IMG/VR virus record: IMGVR_UViG_2660238423_000033
DNA: 14,990 nt
Reading direction: 5' to 3' (one strand)
Source: a virus
Taxonomy: Duplodnaviria > Heunggongvirae > Uroviricota > Caudoviricetes
The notes beneath the pieces are model-generated. The model did not search any database. It was given only the letters and a program-made list of their open reading frames with translations, and was not told the origin of the DNA. Positions 1-14,990 of the stretch are shown here, one piece after another. The position numbers and the translations under genes were made by a program. How positions within the stretch are numbered: position 1 is the first letter of the stretch; each line of letters opens with the position of its first letter.

Positions 1-156
1 ATGGCAAAGCCGATCATCACGCTCAATGGCCTAAAAATCGTCATTATGTTGGGAATGCTGGTCATTATTCTCTGCGGTATCCGTTTTGCCGCCGAGATCA
101 TCGTGCCGTTTATTCTCGCATTATTTATTGCTGTTATATATAACTTATTTCGCATA
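1..156 (+). pseudogene. tqsA: 5' fragment of an AI-2E family transporter gene (TqsA/YdgG-like), interrupted after about 45 codons
   Basis: Translation [45 protein letters not shown] is a hydrophobic membrane-protein N-terminus that I recognise from memory as TqsA-like. From about nt 136 the frame diverges into AT-rich sequence (YNLFRITH) and stops at 154-156. Not in the ORF track because it is under 60 aa. Confidence 0.45.
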
Positions 157-862
157 ACACATTGATTTAATTAAATAATTAACACCGCAAAAGTGCCAAA
201 AATCGCAAAATGACTACACCAGTGACTACACCGTTCGGTGCACTGTATGAAACAACGTGGAACAAATAGACACAAGAAATATACAGGCGGATCATCTTTC
301 CAGGGGGAAGCACACCAATTCATGAGGGGCGTTAATGTCGATATGGGGATCCCCACCTACCGGAATTTTTTTCCGGTTAAACGTTAATCAGGCTGGTGGG
401 CTTTACCTGTTCGGTAGGTGTTATGATTATCGTAATACCTTTCCCCCAATGGGGTAAAAGCATCAACCGTAACGAAAGTCGTTATGGTTGCCACTGATAC
501 CCCAAATTTGGGTATCACGAGTAAGCCCCAAAATCTGGGTGTTACTCTTACTACCCAAACTACGGGTAGTTTCCGTAGTTTCATGGTCGAGTTGCAGATC
601 TGCAACTCCCCCATTAACCACAGGCGAATTTCCGCCTTCGGTCATTCCTTAATCATCTGCGTAATCATAATGATTATTCAGCAAGCGCAATTTTGCGCTT
701 TGCTTAAAGTTCAGCGAGTTACCGCGCCGACTTCCTCAAATTGAGGTTTCCGAAAATATCAGCGGGTTAGCGATTAAGCTGACCATTAATTAAACTGCGA
801 AAATGTCGTAGTTGTGAGGGGTGTAGCCAACCCATTTTTGGGCCGTCGGGAATATCAACCAG

Positions 863-4184: not shown

Positions 4185-4519
4185 TTTTCCGCGCCCTCAC
4201 GACAAAGAATTTCAAGGCGTGTCCTGGCGGCATCCGGCAGCGGCTGCCCGATGATATTCAGTACACGCCCCGCCAGCGGCCCCGTACTGACCTTTATCCG
4301 GCTGGTGGCGTTGATGTCCTTCCGGTACCGTATCCAGATCCTTACGGTACCAATCGCCAGCTCTGCACCCGATGAAATGGCCTCCTTGCTGCTGATCATG
4401 TTCACGCTTGCCCAGAGTGTGTGACCGTCCTCCCACGTTTCGAGTATTTCGCCGGTTATATCCCTGGTCTGTTTCAGGGTCTGAATCGTTACCCTGTCAC
4501 GCAGTCGCCCTATGTTCAT
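4181..4519 (-). CDS. head closure / head-tail joining protein (likely start at 4519; ORF track extends to 4561)
   Basis: MNIGRLRDRVTIQTLKQTRDITGEILETWEDGHTLWASV...VRIWIRYRKDIN fits the phage head-tail joining family. The ATG at 4519 overlaps the portal stop (ATGA) and has GAGGGAG upstream. Confidence 0.65.
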   Translation of the reverse strand: MNIGRLRDRVTIQTLKQTRDITGEILETWEDGHTLWASVNMISSKEAISSGAELAIGTVRIWIRYRKDINATSRIKVSTGPLAGRVLNIIGQPLPDAARTRLEILCREGAEK

Positions 4520-6340: not shown

Positions 6341-7498
6341 TTAATCGTCGTCCTGTGGCAGTTCCAGAATCTTGATCGCGTTCGAATCCACCACGCCACC
6401 GCCTAAATATTTCTGCGTGAAAATTTTGATGAAGCCCGGCTCTGTGAGGTTGTCCGGTCTGGTGCGAACACCTGTTTCGTGATCAACAATGTAGTAACCG
6501 CGTTTGAAGTCACCCAGGGCAATAACGTTATCAGGCATAAACTCCAGATATTCGACCGGAAGGCCCAGCAACGTATCAGGATCACCCGCCTGTAAACGGT
6601 CGCGCCAGATGTAATCACCGTTCGCGTTCTTCACCTTCTGAAGTTTTGCCGCCGTCGTGGAGTTAACCACCCAGACCGCGTTTTTGCGGTATTTTTTACG
6701 TAATGCAAATTTCAGGTCGATCAGCGGGTCCGCAGATGTCCACGCCAGAGATTCGGAAGGTTTAATTACCTGCAACGTACCAAAATCACGCTCTTTGTCG
6801 TTCTTCTCTGCACGGGGTACGGATAAAAAACCTTTTGCTTTTTTGTCACCGTCGCCCACAACCAGATCGCTTTCTTCGGTTTCCGTGAAGGTGTCGCCAA
6901 TCTCACCCGTCAGCCATGAAAGGATGTCCACATCGGAAAAATCCACGATTTCCTGTGTGGTGCGCGGGTACGCATAGACCGGATACAGCTTAATGCTCAC
7001 CTCGTTAATCTGCGGGGTGCTGGTCTGTTCGCGTGCCTTACCCTCTTCACCGTGGTTAACGGTCGCACCGCCAGCGGAAACAAGCTGCTTAAACTCGTTG
7101 CTGCTGATTTTCTTCACGGTACAGATGCGGCGCATGGTGGATTCATCCGCCAGCATTCGCATGATTTCGGTGTTCAGCTCGGGGATAACGGTATAACCAC
7201 CATCAGCGGGAACGCCTGTACTTAATGCGCGGGTTTCACCTGTCAGGATGTAGTTGCGTAGTTCTGCGGGGTCAGTGGTCTGACTGCTTTTACCTGGCTT
7301 GCTGCGCTCTTCGTCTGCAATGGCTTCAAGGCGGGAAATGTCTTTATCGAGGGATTCAGCTTTAGTGCGTAATTCGTCAAATTTTGCGCCCTCAGCATCG
7401 TTAAGACTGCGGTTTTCTTTTTCCGCGTTCTCCAGCATGTCGCGCATCTGATTTTTAATGGCGGTTTTCTGCTGGCGTAATTCGATTATTCTCGGCAT
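6341..7498 (-). CDS. major capsid protein, HK97 fold, with N-terminal coiled-coil (delta/scaffold-like) region
   Basis: 385 aa; N-terminal about 90 residues are charged and heptad-like (IIELRQQKTAIKNQMRDMLENAEKENRSL...ISRLEAIADEE), as in HK97 delta domains. Position next to the protease and portal supports the call. ATG at 7498. Confidence 0.8.
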   Translation of the reverse strand: MPRIIELRQQKTAIKNQMRDMLENAEKENRSLNDAEGAKFDELRTKAESLDKDISRLEAIADEERSKPGKSSQTTDPAELRNYILTGETRALSTGVPADGGYTVIPELNTEIMRMLADESTMRRICTVKKISSNEFKQLVSAGGATVNHGEEGKAREQTSTPQINEVSIKLYPVYAYPRTTQEIVDFSDVDILSWLTGEIGDTFTETEESDLVVGDGDKKAKGFLSVPRAEKNDKERDFGTLQVIKPSESLAWTSADPLIDLKFALRKKYRKNAVWVVNSTTAAKLQKVKNANGDYIWRDRLQAGDPDTLLGLPVEYLEFMPDNVIALGDFKRGYYIVDHETGVRTRPDNLTEPGFIKIFTQKYLGGGVVDSNAIKILELPQDDD

Positions 7499-7708: not shown

Positions 7709-7738
7709 CAGTGAACAACGTGGAACAACCACGAACAA
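7709..7738 (+). repeat. three GAACAA hexamers phased at exactly 10 bp (candidate regulator binding array)
   Basis: cagtGAACAAcgtgGAACAAccacGAACAAataa, with hexamers at 7713, 7723 and 7733. The same architecture occurs at 246-275 and, on the other strand, at 13681-13730. Confidence 0.45.
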
Positions 7739-7754
7739 ATAATTTACAAAAAAT

Positions 7755-7780
7755 GACAAAAAGCCGGATTTCTCCGGCTG
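7755..7780 (-). terminator. rho-independent terminator after the 74 aa gene
   Basis: Minus-strand RNA gccgga-GAAA-uccggc followed by uuuuugucauuuuuu; lies 12 nt after the stop at 7790. Confidence 0.6.
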
Positions 7781-7789
7781 TATGGGTGC

Positions 7790-8013
7790 TCAGTCCCTGA
7801 TCCCTTTCAGAAATTCTATCAATGCATCTATCTGTTCAGGATTTACCGCCAGCATTTCACCGGATAGAGCACATCTCACAAAACCATGCTGATCCTTTTC
7901 AATCAGTGCGCCCGTCTCCAGGAATGCGCGGTAATCATTGATGCTCATCGTCTCCATGTTGTCAGCATGGTATTTATCACGCTGTTTTAATATCTCATCA
8001 AATTTCATCGGCA
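7790..8013 (-). CDS. hypothetical protein (74 aa from the ATG at 8013; ORF track extends to 8092)
   Basis: MPMKFDEILKQRDKYHADNMETMSINDYRAFLETGALIEK...; GAGGA lies 7 nt upstream of the ATG at 8013. Flanked by terminators on both sides, so it is a stand-alone transcription unit. No family recognised. Confidence 0.5.
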
Positions 8014-8107
8014 TTGTTTTTTCCTCTGTTGTGTCTGTTTGTTTCAGATAGTAACTATGCCTGACCGTGACGAAAACCCGGTAATGCACCATACCGTTTC
8101 AACTGGT

Positions 8108-8134
8108 GCAAAAAAAGCCGGATTTCTCCGGCTG
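8108..8134 (-). terminator. rho-independent terminator after the perC-like gene
   Basis: Same 24 nt sequence as the terminator at 7755-7780 (aaaaagccggatttctccggctgt on the plus strand); the minus-strand hairpin is followed by U7. Confidence 0.65.
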
Positions 8135-9107: not shown

Positions 9108-9149
9108 ATTTATTTTTACCCCCTCGTTTAAAAAGTTTTGAGTTGTGCC

Positions 9150-9385
9150 TCCCCTTGTCTACCTTATCTACCTTAGTGGCCCTCATACCAGTAATGGCGC
9201 GGCTTTCAGCTGGGTAGAGTGCTTTTATCCACTATCTACCCCGTGTCTACCTCCCTGTCTGATTCAGGTAAAATCAGGTAGAGAGGGTAGATAGTGGGTA
9301 GACAGTAAAAAAAGGCTATCTACCTAACTTAATGCACTGAATTAAATGTATTTTTCTTTACTCAGGTAGACAGGGTAGACAGCAA
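9150..9385. repeat. replication origin: iteron array (GGTAGACA and variants, both orientations) around an AT-rich core
   Basis: At least 11 copies of GGTAGA(C/T/G)A or its complement TGTCTACC/TATCTACC (for example 9156, 9166, 9233, 9244, 9278, 9287, 9298, 9317, 9366, 9375), with an AT-rich stretch at 9330-9360. Begins 14 bp after the pri-rep stop. Confidence 0.65.
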
Positions 9386-9395
9386 TTACAAAAAA

Positions 9396-11150
9396 TTATA
9401 AAAACGCGTCGCACTCGTCTGTTGTTATTGCGTTAGTCTGCGTTACTCCCTTAACTTTCCGCGTAATATATTCATGTCCGTAAACTTTCGCGGCTGGCTT
9501 CATAGCCTTGCCAAAGTCATTTACGTTTAGCGGTTTGCTCCTGCCTGCGTACGCCATAAACGCCAGATAGACGCGGTAAAGGCTGTTTCTGGTCGTGTAC
9601 TTCACTGAATCGCCACCGCCGCCCATCATCAGGCCGCGTGCTTCCTCCAGAAAATTCAGGAACTGGCAAAACTCAATAACCGGATCCGTCTGTTGCTTTA
9701 TTGCCAGAGCTTCATCACCGTCACGCTGTTCCAGTAGTAAAGCCCGTGCCTTCTCAGGGTCGGTAAAGTTCGCCAGCAATCGGCGGATAATGACAGGGAT
9801 TTCAGCCGCGATCTTTTCCGGTAGCTCCCTGTCTTTTTCGGCCTCACTGACGATATTGTCGAAACGGAAAATCACGCGACGACGTGCCACACCTCCGGCC
9901 CGTTCGGTGAATATCATCGGGTTATTGTTGGTCGCCAGCACCACCGCCCTGATTACAGCCGTGAAACGCTTTTCGTATTTCGGGTTAATTTCCACGGGGT
10001 CACCGCCCGTGATTTTCTTGATGCCCGTTCCTTCGCCTGTATATTTCGGCTGGTCAGCCAGGACGATAAGACGACTCCCGACAACCTGCGCACGTCCACC
10101 AGCATCATCAAGCGATGTCATTTCAGCGCTTACCGTGTTCTGTTTCCCTGCCAGAAGGCTGGCTATGTGCGTGAATGTACTTTTACCGCTCCCGCCGTCT
10201 CCGGTGGCCTCAATAAACATCTGCCAGTCGTACCGGTTCGCCATAATCATGTACAGCGCGGCACATATACGCATCATCTTGCGCGGGTCTTTTCCGGCTG
10301 CGTGCTCAAGCCATTTATGAAAGTTTGGCGCGTTATCGCGGATGTTCTCCCCTGGTGCTGGTGGCGTGTACTCAATGCCGTTGTGCGTGGTGATCCAGTT
10401 CTCCGGCGTGTGCGGGGAAAATTCCCCCGTTTTCAGGTCAAGCGCACCATTGGCGAACGGCAGCAAATCGCCGGACGGCTCGCCCATTGGTTCGGCAATA
10501 ACTTTTAACGCTTCCACGGCGTTATTGATTACGCGCTTGCTGAAAGTGGCCCTGTGCTCTGAATAGATCGCCACCATTTCGCGGCTAAGTTCCATTGTGC
10601 TGACCGGACACCATACCCCGCCGCGCCATACGTGAACGATTTCACTTTCAGGATGTACGCAAACGCCATCAAAGCGATCGGCAAGCAGCTGCGCGCGCTC
10701 ACTGTCCGCCATCTGCGAAAGTTGCGCCTTTTGCTTTACCGGAAGCTCAATGACCAGACCATCAGAAAGATTCTGGCGCTCACGAGCCAGATATTCGCGC
10801 CAGTTCTCCACCTTCTGACCGTGCATACCATCAGGGTAAAAATTTGCATCCTGTACGCCTGCCGCCGCCAGCTTCTGACCAATCGCCTTTATCATTACTG
10901 GCGCAAGATATCCGGCCCTGAATATGCGCACGGATTTTCTGCCTTCCGGCACAATTTGCAGCTTATCCAGTTCGGATAACTGCTGCTCCCCAAGCCACAC
11001 AGGAGGCTCATTATCTCCGGCCATACGCGCGTCATGTTCCTGCCATTGTTTTGCGTGTGACCAGGCATCACTACCCGCAAAAATAATGACTTCAGTTTCT
11101 TTGTGTTTTATGCCGCGTGACTGCTGTTTTACGTTCGGTGCCAGTTTCAT
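9396..11150 (-). CDS. primase/replication initiator (Pri-Rep), P4-alpha/D5-like with a Walker A NTPase
   Basis: 584 aa; Walker A motif ATGDGGSGKST mid-protein, with the N-terminal half consistent with a primase region. ATG at 11150 has AGGGG upstream and overlaps the upstream stop. Confidence 0.85.
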   Translation of the reverse strand: MKLAPNVKQQSRGIKHKETEVIIFAGSDAWSHAKQWQEHDARMAGDNEPPVWLGEQQLSELDKLQIVPEGRKSVRIFRAGYLAPVMIKAIGQKLAAAGVQDANFYPDGMHGQKVENWREYLARERQNLSDGLVIELPVKQKAQLSQMADSERAQLLADRFDGVCVHPESEIVHVWRGGVWCPVSTMELSREMVAIYSEHRATFSKRVINNAVEALKVIAEPMGEPSGDLLPFANGALDLKTGEFSPHTPENWITTHNGIEYTPPAPGENIRDNAPNFHKWLEHAAGKDPRKMMRICAALYMIMANRYDWQMFIEATGDGGSGKSTFTHIASLLAGKQNTVSAEMTSLDDAGGRAQVVGSRLIVLADQPKYTGEGTGIKKITGGDPVEINPKYEKRFTAVIRAVVLATNNNPMIFTERAGGVARRRVIFRFDNIVSEAEKDRELPEKIAAEIPVIIRRLLANFTDPEKARALLLEQRDGDEALAIKQQTDPVIEFCQFLNFLEEARGLMMGGGGDSVKYTTRNSLYRVYLAFMAYAGRSKPLNVNDFGKAMKPAAKVYGHEYITRKVKGVTQTNAITTDECDAFL

Positions 11151-12529: not shown

Positions 12530-12709
12530 ATGGCAACAGGTTCAACAAATAATAAGTCGCAACAGTTAAATGCCAGATTCCCGCATGATGTTGTTGCAGA
12601 CTTAGAAAAAAATTTAGATGAAGGTGAAAGCAAGGCGCAATTTATAGTTACTGCCGTTAAAGGTGAGATCAAACGCCGCCAGCGTCGCAAGGCCAAAGAG
12701 CAGGAGTAA
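12530..12709 (+). CDS. ribbon-helix-helix (Arc/Mnt-like) DNA-binding protein, 59 aa
   Basis: QQLNARFPHDVVADLEKNLDEGESKAQFIVTAVKGEIKRR aligns by eye with the Arc repressor strand-helix-helix (QFNLRWPREVLDLVRKVAEENGRSVNSEIYQRVMESF). GAGAGGA precedes the ATG at 12530. Confidence 0.5.
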   Translation: MATGSTNNKSQQLNARFPHDVVADLEKNLDEGESKAQFIVTAVKGEIKRRQRRKAKEQE

Positions 12710-13209: not shown

Positions 13210-13398
13210 TTAATGAACTGCCTTGCAGCTATCCTTCCAGGCCAGAACCTCGGATAAAGACCAGCCAACGGAACGACCGCCAAGTTTACGACGTGATGGG
13301 AATTGTCCGGCCTTTTCCAGGCGGTAGCGGCATGAGCGGCTAAGGCCTGTTAGCTTTTCGCATTCTTTTTCACGTATAAACCGATCAGTGCTTAACAC
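13210..13398 (-). CDS. alpA: AlpA-family transcriptional regulator / excisionase-like protein
   Basis: 62 aa; EKECEKLTGLSRSCRYRLEKAGQFPSRRKLGGRSVGWSLSEVLAW matches the AlpA family. The start is GTG at 13398 with AGGGGG 6 nt upstream. A hairpin without a U-tract (tggcggc-tgtgt-gccgcca, 13185-13203) lies 7 nt downstream. Confidence 0.85.
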   Translation of the reverse strand: MLSTDRFIREKECEKLTGLSRSCRYRLEKAGQFPSRRKLGGRSVGWSLSEVLAWKDSCKAVH

Positions 13399-13680
13399 TA
13401 TTGCCCCCTTTCGTTTCTTAAAGAGTTATTTCGTGTTCTATTGCGTTGGGATGTGTCTGATTGTGTCAGGATGATTCAGAGTTGGCAAATGTTGAGGTCG
13501 TATGGTTTACAGAAACAGGAATAATCAGGATAAAATCATTTAAATTCATGTTAATACAAAGGCATAAAATATTGTTTCATGCCTTTTTTCTCGCCATTTA
13601 AAGAGTGATTCGCTAGTGTATAAAAAACCAGTAACACATTAAAAATCAGCCACTTATAAATCCGTACACTTTTTCGCCTC

Positions 13681-13730
13681 TTGTTCGTAGTTGTTCCGCA
13701 TTGTTGCTCATTGTTGCATGTTGTATCTGT
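13681..13730 (-). repeat. five 10-bp-phased (G/C)AACAA-type repeats upstream of alpA
   Basis: Plus strand reads ttgttcgtag ttgttccgca ttgttgctca ttgttgcatg ttgtatctgt, five consecutive 10-mers each starting TTGT(T/A); on the minus strand these are ...GAACAA, GAACAA, CAACAA, CAACAA, ATACAA. Same motif family as 7709-7738 and 246-275. Confidence 0.5.
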
Positions 13731-13740
13731 TCGCATATCC

Positions 13741-13756
13741 AGTATGCGCATACTGA
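13741..13756. promoter_or_regulatory. perfect 16 bp palindrome CAGTATGCGCATACTG between the int stop and the phased repeats
   Basis: cagtatgc/gcatactg is exactly self-complementary. No U-tract follows on either strand, so it looks like a dimeric protein-binding site rather than a terminator. Confidence 0.4.
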
Positions 13757-13772
13757 AAAAACACGAAAAAAA

Positions 13773-14990
13773 TTATTTTCTTCTGGCTACTGGTAGCGTG
13801 GTTACGTTTTCATGTGTTCCCGCCAGTATCCCTAACCGCTCCGTCCACATATCCAGCGCATTGCGTTTAGCATCCAGATAACGGGAATGATTATAAACTC
13901 GCTGCATTCCTGGCATCTGATGACCTGTAAGCTGCTCCACGACATGCGGATCAACGCCTAAATCGTTCAGCATGGTTGTAAAGGTGCGCCGGATGTCATG
14001 CAGTGACCAGTGAGGATGATTAAGCCTCCTGTGCGCTAATCTTCCATACTGCGATACGCTGGCCTCCTGTTTCGCTTCCCCCAGCAATAAGCCCGTGTGC
14101 CTGTTCTGCTCCACCAGCTGCGTGACGAACGGCAGGATCGCTTCCGGTATGGGCCGGAATATTGCGACCTTCGTTTTGCTGTGCTCCTTCGGAACGGTCC
14201 ATAGCATTTCCGTAAAATCCCACTCCCCGATCTCCGATAGCCTCAGTTCTACCGTCCTGGCTCCGAAGACAATCAGGAGGCGGATTAACGCGACGTAGTA
14301 AGGGGAAAATATTTTTTTGTCCAGTGCCTGCAATAATTCGCCAAGTTCTTTGTTACTTAAGACACGTTCGCTTATATCCGGTTTTTTCCCAACGTCCGCC
14401 ACGTTCAGATCGTCCAGAACGTTGCTGATTGCATAGCGCCGCCTACGGCAGAACTTAAGCGCCTGTTTGCACGCCTGTAGCACGAATCCGGCAGTAACAG
14501 GCGTTCGCTTTGCCACCTGGTCAAAACAGGCCAGCCAGTGCCGTAGCTCGCATTTATCCAGCGGCATAGCACCAATCTGCTGTATTACGTGATTATTAAG
14601 TCGCCTTTTCAGGGCGATATAATCCACGCGGTTTTCCTTTACGTAATACTCAAGCCAGTAGGTGAGCGCATCGCCAACCGTTACGGGCTTTAACGCTTCC
14701 TGTACGGTGTAATTCATCTCATGACGTGGATTTTTCCCCTCAGCCAGCCATGTGCGACACTGTGCGGCTTTTTCCCTGGCTGCTTTCAGGCTCAGATCAG
14801 GATAACTTCCCAGCTTAATGCGTTCGGGTCGTGTCTCCCTTCCCGTTCCGGCCCTGTATGTGAAATACCAGGTCAATTTCCCTGATGTTAAATATTTCAC
14901 GCTCAGGTTTCCGCCATCACTATAAAACGTGTTTTTCTCCGCTGGCTTACCATGAAGTTTCCTTAGCAAGGTATCGCTCAGTTTGTTCAT
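13773..14990 (-). CDS. int: tyrosine site-specific integrase, P4 family
   Basis: 405 aa; N-terminal arm-binding domain (FYSDGGNLSVKYLTSGKLTWYFTYRAGTGRETRPERIKLGSYPDLSLKAAREKA) and a C-terminal catalytic region (HDIRRTFTT, LTGHQMPGMQRVYNHSRY carrying the catalytic Tyr). The ATG is the last three bases of the window. Confidence 0.95.
   Translation of the reverse strand: MNKLSDTLLRKLHGKPAEKNTFYSDGGNLSVKYLTSGKLTWYFTYRAGTGRETRPERIKLGSYPDLSLKAAREKAAQCRTWLAEGKNPRHEMNYTVQEALKPVTVGDALTYWLEYYVKENRVDYIALKRRLNNHVIQQIGAMPLDKCELRHWLACFDQVAKRTPVTAGFVLQACKQALKFCRRRRYAISNVLDDLNVADVGKKPDISERVLSNKELGELLQALDKKIFSPYYVALIRLLIVFGARTVELRLSEIGEWDFTEMLWTVPKEHSKTKVAIFRPIPEAILPFVTQLVEQNRHTGLLLGEAKQEASVSQYGRLAHRRLNHPHWSLHDIRRTFTTMLNDLGVDPHVVEQLTGHQMPGMQRVYNHSRYLDAKRNALDMWTERLGILAGTHENVTTLPVARRK

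Follow-up and report, generated by a model that had tools for sequence, protein, structure and literature searches.

The stretch analysed here, 14,990 nucleotides of a virus of the Caudoviricetes (IMG/VR record IMGVR_UViG_2660238423_000033; hereafter the window), holds an Escherichia coli capsid-forming phage-inducible chromosomal island (cf-PICI) of the EcCIEDL933 kind, inserted in tqsA. The assignment follows from the presence of a P4-type integrase gene (int), alpA, a D5-type primase gene and a full HK97-type head module, together with the split tqsA. The spacer between int and alpA contains a genuine, selected and helically phased array of AACAA-type repeats, here termed array C (13681–13725, minus strand). 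Boxes of the same type recur in both attachment (att) arms of the island and upstream of its capsid operon, and we lean, with modest confidence, towards the interpretation that they are recognition boxes for the island's own AlpA protein, which would bind them as a cooperative head-to-tail array.

Array C is composed of five 10-bp units on the minus strand, the sense strand of alpA. The first unit is TACAA (13725–13721) and the remaining four are AACAA (13715–13711, 13705–13701, 13695–13691 and 13685–13681). The spacing of the four perfect AACAA units and the single TACAA is exactly 10 bp, and a possible sixth, degenerate unit (AAAAA) follows in phase. On the sense strand the spacer reads ...TTTTTT-CAGTATGCGCATACTG-GATATGCGAACAGA-TACAA-catgc-AACAA-tgagc-AACAA-tgcgg-AACAA-ctacg-AACAA-gagg.... 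The array lies 283–327 bp upstream of the alpA start codon, between the int stop codon (13773) and the alpA GTG (13398), which bears out the preliminary description of this DNA in its claim of five consecutive phased units on the gene-sense strand of the alpA control region. The same description gave the repeat as a hexamer, which proved too generous; the phased repeat itself stands, but its invariant core is the pentamer (A/C/T)ACAA, mostly preceded by G or C. Comparison with shuffled sequence shows that the array is not a chance arrangement. The pattern AACAA-N5-AACAA-N5-AACAA with at most one mismatch has 5 matches in the window compared to 0.01 expected from 200 dinucleotide shuffles, and a five-unit ACAA pattern has 1 match compared to 0.00 expected. 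A small open reading frame (ORF) across the repeats (13551–13751, 66 amino acids) was rejected as an explanation, as it yielded only a sub-threshold Pfam hit and relatives carry 10-bp insertions or deletions inside it. A search of Rfam at the gathering threshold gave no hits, the only match being to opuB and far below the threshold.

Conservation was assessed in 74 related loci (69 IMG/VR contigs together with E. coli and Shigella genomes), in which AlpA is 89–100% identical and which provide 54 unique spacer sequences. A search for AlpA in genome contigs gave 3 loci only, and the AlpA homologues in the phage collection were all less than 60% identical. Two classes stand out among them: class 1, which carries a palindrome beside the array (36 unique sequences), and class 2, which is of the EcCICFT073 type (17 unique sequences). 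The array upstream of alpA is present at the same position in 73 of the 74 loci, so the conservation across related islands that the preliminary description had proposed to look for was found. In class 1 only 3 of 25 core columns are variable, compared with 11 of 20 spacer columns (p = 0.003 by Fisher's exact test on the 36 unique sequences), and minor alleles occupy 1.2% of the core cells against 15% of the spacer cells. Phasing is preserved throughout, with ACAA cores that hardly vary and spacers that drift; one island shows an exact duplication of a 10-bp unit. Class 2, which includes EcCICFT073, has 6–7 units (GGACAA-cgtg-AAACAA-cgag-ACACAA-cgac-GAACAA-caag-GAACAA-aatg-GAACAA). The non-random occurrence of the array and the retention of its cores while the spacers drift indicate that array C is under selection.

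The preliminary description also stated that the phased repeat recurs at two other places in the element. Both recurrences are present, although on the plus strand. Array A (251–275; AACAA-cgtgg-AACAA-ataga-CACAA) belongs to the left att arm, at a distance of about 120 bp inward from the att junction, and is identical in the loci L001–L004, L077 and L095. Array B (7714–7759) has AACAA at 7714, 7724 and 7734, TACAA at 7745 and GACAA at 7755. It reads TTGTT on the gene-sense strand and is placed between a terminator hairpin and the capsid operon, with a weak promoter-like site (TTTACC-16-TATTCT) about 25 bp downstream of its end. An array upstream of the capsid gene was found in 24 of 25 relatives with an HK97-type capsid gene. 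The right att arm lies outside the window and was read in genomes that include the right junction. There, the units CACAA, TACAA, AACAA, AACAA and CACAA are located between the int start codon and the att core; 23 of the 24 loci extending into the arm carry this int-side array. Finally, a proximal degenerate array (13431–13466, minus strand; ACACAA, ACACAT, ACGCAA and ACACGA at 10-bp spacing, class consensus GACACAAtcgGACACAAcacAACACAAtaaGACACC) lies between array C and alpA and is less conserved than array C. AACAA is the most enriched 5-mer shared by the two att arms and the regions upstream of alpA and of the capsid operon, where 12 occurrences were observed compared to 2.4 expected. The occurrence of the boxes at the att arms and the capsid operon as well as at alpA points to the regulon of an excisionase that is also a regulator.

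AlpA is the candidate that best fits such a regulon. The alpA gene (13210–13398, minus strand, GTG start codon at 13398) encodes a protein of 62 amino acids that matches the Pfam family PF05930 (Phage_AlpA) with E = 5e-18. Its AlphaFold model, with a predicted local distance difference test (pLDDT) value of 87, has the winged-helix topology beta-H-H-beta-beta-H, and the best fold matches of the model are the GIsul2 excisionase (8c3t; template modelling (TM) score 0.79), MerR-type winged helix-turn-helix (wHTH) domains, the excisionase RdfS and TorI (1z4h; TM 0.64). AlpA is 47% identical to the Vis protein of P4. Excisionase-type wHTH proteins bind as monomers to direct repeats spaced one helical turn apart. 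In keeping with an array of boxes for a recombination directionality factor (RDF) or regulator, an excisionase-type wHTH protein is encoded next to int, at least three repeats are phased, and boxes lie between the putative integrase (Int) arm-type sites and the core. The EcCICFT073 AlpA is 95% identical to the one in the window and its upstream region carries 6–7 boxes; this AlpA is an activator of its own promoter, and its over-expression alone leads to excision and replication of the island (PMC6092414). Over-expression of alpA likewise drives the production of EcCIEDL933 particles. AlpA must act at attL and attR, at its own promoter and, directly or indirectly, at the capsid operon, which fits a box type found exactly at these places. 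The suggestion in the preliminary description that an auto-regulator acts at this region thus holds insofar as AlpA is the best candidate binder. The boxes are nevertheless not specific to alpA, as they also occupy the att arms and the capsid operon.

Other AlpA subfamilies have phased arrays at the same position, about 300–350 bp upstream of the alpA start, with other box sequences. Islands at the fis site that encode regulators of 94 amino acids (L096 4900–5120; L178–L257) have 5–10 perfect tandem copies of CATTCAACAG followed by five phased copies of TGTTCATC, located 380–600 bp upstream of the AlpA-like gene and variable in copy number. Islands of the ICRTTRY or VSRTTRY type have boxes of the form (A/T)TCG(A/T)C or GTTCG, and the locus L091 has AATATC. 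Array B is kept in cf-PICIs whose integrases are 42–51% identical (L080, L081 and L096), and the AlpA-like regulators of these islands keep the LSRS start of the recognition helix. Over approximately 250 loci, a comparison of the AlpA recognition helix with the box sequence gives a pattern of covariation that is suggestive but not clean, with L078, L079 and L080 as exceptions.

These results lead us to propose a model in which AlpA would serve as both RDF and transcription activator. AlpA monomers would bind head to tail, with one monomer at each turn of the helix, and would build up a short cooperative filament along a single DNA face. At the right att arm, where the boxes separate the Int doublet from the core, in the place taken elsewhere by Xis or TorI sites, the bound AlpA may bend the arm for excision. 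The boxes upstream of alpA would serve for activation from upstream, with positive autoregulation and a bistable on-switch as the outcome once a helper phage has raised alpA expression, and the array at the capsid operon would couple morphogenesis to the same AlpA switch.

Two promoters may serve alpA in this arrangement. A putative activator-dependent promoter on the minus strand (13617–13645), read by eye, has the −35 hexamer TTTTTA (13645–13640), a 17-bp spacer and the −10 hexamer TATACA (13622–13617), and falls in a strongly conserved block. Relative to it the box centres of array C are at about −73, −83, −93, −103 and −113. The boxes would accordingly lie on one face of the DNA from about −73 upward in 10-bp steps, as for a class-I-type upstream activator array. 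A consensus scan detected a second promoter-like site, TTGCCA-17-CACAAT with an extended TG (13460–13488, minus strand), about 60 nucleotides upstream of the alpA GTG. Its TTTGCCA is invariant in the alignment of 54 sequences, and the proximal degenerate array overlaps it. Between array C and alpA there is also a conserved hairpin, AAAGGCAUGAAA-CAAUA-UUUUAUGCCUUU (13558–13586), which has a 12-bp stem, an A-run before it and a T-run after it. The folding energy is −18.4 kcal/mol for the 96-nucleotide context (z = −2.85), and the stem is kept in relatives through A-U or G-U variants. The hairpin resembles a bidirectional terminator; as such it would stop plus-strand transcripts from the ribbon-helix-helix (RHH) gene and possibly sense transcripts from int or the distal promoter. 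A separate observation in this region is the motif AAT(C/A)ACTCTTTAA, which occurs twice on the sense strand, at 13598–13610 after the putative distal promoter and at 13418–13430 immediately ahead of the alpA ribosome-binding site. Conservation of the two copies is high, and the motif resembles the reverse complement of the start of the P2 Cox box (TTAAAG), though it is found here in single copies only.

Several observations weigh against AlpA as the binder. The array is 283–327 bp away from the alpA start with the terminator-like hairpin in between, and the promoter from which the box positions are counted is a guess that the consensus scan did not call. The orientation of the boxes with respect to transcription is sense at alpA and antisense at the capsid operon. 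The loci L078 and L079, whose AlpA has the recognition helix ICRTTRY, keep TTGTT-type boxes in the arms and have none upstream of alpA, and L080, which has an LSRS-type regulator and array B, shows no clear array in the arms or upstream of the alpA-like gene. The EcCICFT073 AlpA left the activity of the int promoter unchanged even though the int-side arm carries five boxes (PMC6092414). The alpA promoter of EcCIMP1 is still responsive to the helper in a mutant lacking alpA, indicating that another factor also acts on this region.

The last observation would also be expected if the boxes served to dock a factor from outside the island. This factor could be a helper-phage protein, the inducer of Gram-negative PICIs, acting in the manner of P2 Cox on the phased Cox boxes upstream of PLL/vis in P4, or a direct-repeat-binding protein of the host, for instance a response regulator. 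Helper phages do induce alpA transcription (PMC6092414), and the box sequences differ among PICI subfamilies and could encode helper specificity. Moreover, P4 has three TGxCTTTAA units phased at 10 bp about 150 bp upstream of vis, the reverse complement of which, TTAAAGxCA, is the Cox-box consensus; this triplet provides a precedent for the action of a helper RDF on an array in a satellite. We nonetheless regard a binder from outside the island as unlikely. The same boxes are found in both att arms and before the capsid operon, for which an RDF and activator encoded by the island is the simpler binder, and the 10-bp period and AACAA core are unlike the boxes of lambda CII (TTGC-N6-TTGC), PhoP and ArcA. 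In addition, lambda and phi80 have different early proteins and both induce EcCICFT073 (PMC6092414). A related version, which we consider distinctly doubtful, treats the boxes as the cis-target of helper switching, where a helper-encoded DNA-binding protein would be loaded onto the array or give way to AlpA there, and the boxes of each subfamily would set the range of inducing helpers. If true, it would identify the induction mechanism of the Gram-negative PICIs and cf-PICIs.

The integrase is another candidate binder. It is a P4-type tyrosine integrase encoded by int (13773–14990, minus strand; Pfam Arm-DNA-bind_3 and Phage_integrase), and its arm-binding N-terminal domain matches PDB 3jtz, a CP4-like integrase. 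The boxes could be extra arm-type sites for this domain, with the arrays in the int-alpA spacer and at the capsid operon titrating Int or allowing it to regulate. Both att arms do carry the arrays as direct repeats of one orientation, comparable to P'1–P'3 of lambda, and the loci L078 and L079, in which Int is 76% identical and AlpA only 62%, keep TTGTT-type arrays in the arms. Each arm, however, carries beside the boxes a separate motif that answers better to an Int site. A doubled 12-bp motif, TGACTACACC-AG-TGACTACACC, is located at 211–232 (plus strand), and a second, co-oriented TGACTACACC doublet lies outside the window between the int ATG and the att core (18648–18670 in L001, followed by five boxes at 18679–18725 and the core at about 18798). 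The two doublets are about 88 and 143 bp from the core, and the doublet occurs in the arms and nowhere else in the window. A comparable tandem 12-bp doublet, tgTGTATTGCa twice, is present in helper-embedded PICIs (HE-PICIs); its two copies have the same orientation, lie about 81 and 132 bp away from the centre of attP, and were proposed as the sites at which an Int tetramer places its four arm domains (PMC10111431). That paper called the doublet unique to HE-PICIs and did not describe phased AACAA-type boxes (PMC10111431), but variant doublets are present here in PICIs at the tqsA, phoQ/roxA, cspD, gcd/hpt, fis and thiM sites.

The doublet varies with the integrase clade: it is GGTGTAGTCAC at tqsA (the island studied here), GGTGTAGTTAA at phoQ/roxA, GGTGTATCAC at gcd/hpt, TGTATAAACA and GTGCAGTCAG at fis, and GTGTGGTCAG at thiM. 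Between the window and L002, the N-terminal domains of Int are 78% identical and the doublet changes from GTGACTACACC to TTAACTACACC; the arm arrays of AACAA boxes, by contrast, show no difference, and the AlpA proteins share 98% identity. Because the doublet tracks the integrase clade, is confined to the arms and has the architecture of P4 and HE-PICIs, whereas the boxes stay constant, comparison of the sequences makes it likely that the doublet, and not the AACAA boxes, is the Int arm-type site. The boxes, moreover, also lie 1.3 kb and 7 kb inside the element, and array B is kept with the 42–51% identical integrases mentioned above. The integrase, which the preliminary description had listed among the proteins to assay for binding, is thus an unlikely binder of the repeats.

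Phased repeats may also exist without a sequence-specific binder, as bent DNA, as DNA bound by nucleoid proteins, or as a slippage-prone tandem repeat that is simply carried along. The 10-bp phasing of A-rich pentamers could bend DNA, and the number of units varies among islands; those of the fis type contain 5–10 perfect tandem 10-mers. The selection described above acts on the specific letters ACAA and not on A-richness, however, with spacers that drift freely; AACAA is not a classical A-tract, and the same core is found at five functionally meaningful places. We give this explanation very little weight.

The possibility that the boxes are iterons of the replication initiator or operators of the RHH protein is largely refuted by their distribution and hardly tenable: P4 iteron clusters do adjoin attP (crr) and lie upstream of vis (ori), its type I iteron TGTTCACC resembles TTGTTCAC, and the RHH gene is the only plus-strand gene, in a repressor-like arrangement, but the island has its own ori-like TCTACC/GGTAGA iterons of different sequence (9140–9390), islands with identical AACAA arrays may encode a D5-type primase, a RepA helicase or a DUF927 protein, three replication proteins unrelated to one another, RHH alleles differ among islands with identical arrays, and the O157:H7 cf-PICI has all the arrays and no RHH gene. 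Replication iterons and an RHH (YlcI/YnfO) operator were both rejected on these grounds, and RHH, also named earlier as a protein to assay, is an unlikely binder.

The interpretation of the boxes as AlpA sites gains context from other systems, and the array is best filed with the phased RDF and regulator boxes of P4 Vis, KplE1 TorI, P2 Cox and 186 Apl. P4 Vis (ORF88) belongs to the same family as AlpA (PF05930, E = 1.7e-20 for Vis) and, at the 47% identity given above, shares the GLSRS start of the recognition helix. Vis is annotated as excisionase and regulator, like the dual role proposed for AlpA, and details of its part as excisionase and late-promoter regulator are reportedly given by Polo in 1996 and Cali in 2004. 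The attP of P4 has annotated tandem 12-bp arm repeats (TTGGGGGCAT pairs) on both sides of the core, as the doublet has here, and between the int-side pair of arm repeats and the attP core P4 (L094 3974–4006) has four TCC(G/T) units spaced by exactly 10 bp, in the same layout as the boxes here. The TCC(G/T) units are candidate Vis sites. P4 differs in that its attP boxes are TCCG-like rather than AACAA, in having no five-unit array upstream of vis, where its phased units are Cox boxes for the RDF of the helper, and in having no capsid operon of its own. GAACAA boxes in P4 were considered as Vis sites and found unconvincing, with two copies upstream of vis that are 34 bp apart. Literature searches found no publication on P4 Vis binding sites or on PDB 8C3T.

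In KplE1 (CPS-53), attL has five TorI sites with pentamer cores (GTTCG, GATCG, GTCCG), three of them at 10-bp spacing, which lie on the int side, flanked by the core and the Int arm sites; TorI also represses PintS (PMC2951348). The order in KplE1 attL, with Int arm sites, phased RDF boxes and core, is the same as in the right arm here. The differences are that the TorI sites occupy one arm only, that none are known at structural-gene promoters, and that TorI represses whereas the AlpA of PICIs activates; the TorI sequence used for this comparison falls below the Pfam threshold for Phage_AlpA. P2 Cox and 186 Apl are small excisionases that double as transcription regulators and bind direct repeats about one turn apart at attP and at switch or late promoters. 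They belong to other protein families with other boxes and mainly repress the lysogenic promoter, though Cox activates PLL of P4.

The Pseudomonas aeruginosa AlpA, a Q-like antiterminator, shares the name, and in its system the genes under control are preceded by a promoter with an intrinsic terminator close behind it (PMC7969949, PMC9371919). The terminator-like hairpin between array C and alpA recalls this layout. The P. aeruginosa protein is much larger, with eight helices and DNA-contact residues at 128–142 (PMC9371919) compared with 62 amino acids here, and it uses a single GGGACG element between −35 and −10 rather than a phased array far upstream. An antitermination model of that kind was set aside because protein size and site architecture differ.

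The second feature reported in the preliminary description, a perfect 16-bp palindrome on the int side of the repeats, was confirmed as CAGTATGCGCATACTG at 13740–13755 (both strands), 17 nucleotides past the int stop codon. It is unique in the window even when 3 mismatches are allowed. The window contains 2 perfect 16-bp palindromes (the other at 591) compared with 0.21 expected per shuffled window, so that the palindrome is statistically unremarkable alone and its significance rests on conservation. In the 36 unique class 1 sequences it is near-invariant, with two single-base variants and no compensatory change, and it is absent from the 17 unique class 2 sequences. Judged from this alignment, the array is the conserved feature and the palindrome a lineage-specific addition. 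A role of the palindrome as a general site for the helper signal, which had been considered at the outset, does not hold since the EcCICFT073-type lineage is inducible by helpers and lacks it. The comparison between the two classes suggests that the palindrome probably arose by local inverted duplication of CAG(G/T)ATGCG. Among the ORF clusters of 46 class 1 and 25 class 2 loci, no island gene was found to co-occur with the palindrome. The palindrome was rejected as an intrinsic terminator, as the stem is followed by no T-run on either strand and the terminator scan lists none there; on the sense strand a T-run precedes the stem, and on the other strand an A-run follows it.

Other PICI subfamilies likewise have palindromes with GCATA-type half-sites in front of their AlpA-like genes. 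In L080 the heptamer of the palindrome recurs in a related inverted repeat, CATACTGATA-N13-TATCAGTATG, at 4330–4375, and L097 has AGCATATT-ATCA-ATATGCT and GTGATATCACATAT-AAA-ATATGTGATATCAC at 6500–6570.

A LexA-box-like sequence, ATCTGTTCGCATATCCAGTA (CTGT-N8-CCAG; 13725–13744, plus strand), overlaps both the palindrome's right half and the first unit of array C. With a position weight matrix built from known SOS boxes, which themselves score 13.1–27.5 bits, this site scores 15.5 bits and is the second best in the window. The best, at 13614–13633, scores 18.5 bits and overlaps the putative −10; the highest score in 30 shuffles was 15.2 bits. At 13725–13744 the CTG and CAG ends are invariant in class 1 and the centre is variable. 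Expression of alpA is not SOS-inducible without a helper, which argues against SOS control of alpA (PMC6092414), and we regard the LexA-like sites in the spacer only as a lead.

The remaining features describe the setting of the arrays. All long genes of the window are on the minus strand, including the D5-type primase gene (9396–11150) and the HK97-type capsid gene (6341–7498), whose head module also holds protease, portal and large terminase. The sole plus-strand gene, divergently encoded, is that of the YlcI/YnfO-like RHH protein (12530–12709). Bases 1–165 of the window are the 5' part of tqsA, and the att core TGCTGTTAT (129–137, plus strand) lies within the interrupted gene, as determined by comparing the left end of the window with the right junction in L001, where the int-alpA region is identical to that of the window. 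In E. coli S19-651, tqsA is split by an island with an identical int-alpA region and a different late region, and the int-alpA spacer is present in 732 of 5426 complete E. coli genomes. The RHH protein is identical in the window and in L080, a cf-PICI with an unrelated integrase, and the L001 allele differs. Modules are shuffled among the islands.

The (C/T)TCTACC / GGTAGA iterons at 9140–9390, densely packed in both orientations downstream of the primase gene, probably form the replication origin of the island. An identical terminator hairpin, AGCCGGAGAAATCCGGCT, occurs at 7762–7779 and 8116–8133 and flanks an ORF of 100 amino acids (7790–8092) for which Pfam gave no match; relatives have a PerC-family gene slightly further upstream in this part of the island. 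Perfect palindromes are crowded into the left end of the island (340–780), for example AGTTGCAGATCTGCAACT at 591–606 and GATACCCCAAATTTGGGGTATC near 500, together with copies of a CCGAAAATATCAGCGGGTTAG-like repeat found again at the corresponding end of other PICIs. This region may be involved in packaging or recombination.

AlpA is the master switch of the Gram-negative PICIs and of the cf-PICIs, the latter of which spread across species, and our searches of the accessible literature found no published description of AlpA operator sites in PICIs. The arrays described here would amount to an operator map for this switch, with five arrays of one box type at both att arms, alpA and the capsid upstream region and with a separate, P4-like Int doublet. 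Such a map would explain how one protein of 62 amino acids can trigger excision, its own amplification and the production of particles. It would also imply that the helper-responsive element must fall within the int-alpA spacer of about 375 bp, outside the boxes or overlapping them. The occurrence of subfamily-specific boxes in a recurring architecture upstream of alpA would provide a handle on induction specificity and on the engineering of PICI-based delivery vehicles.

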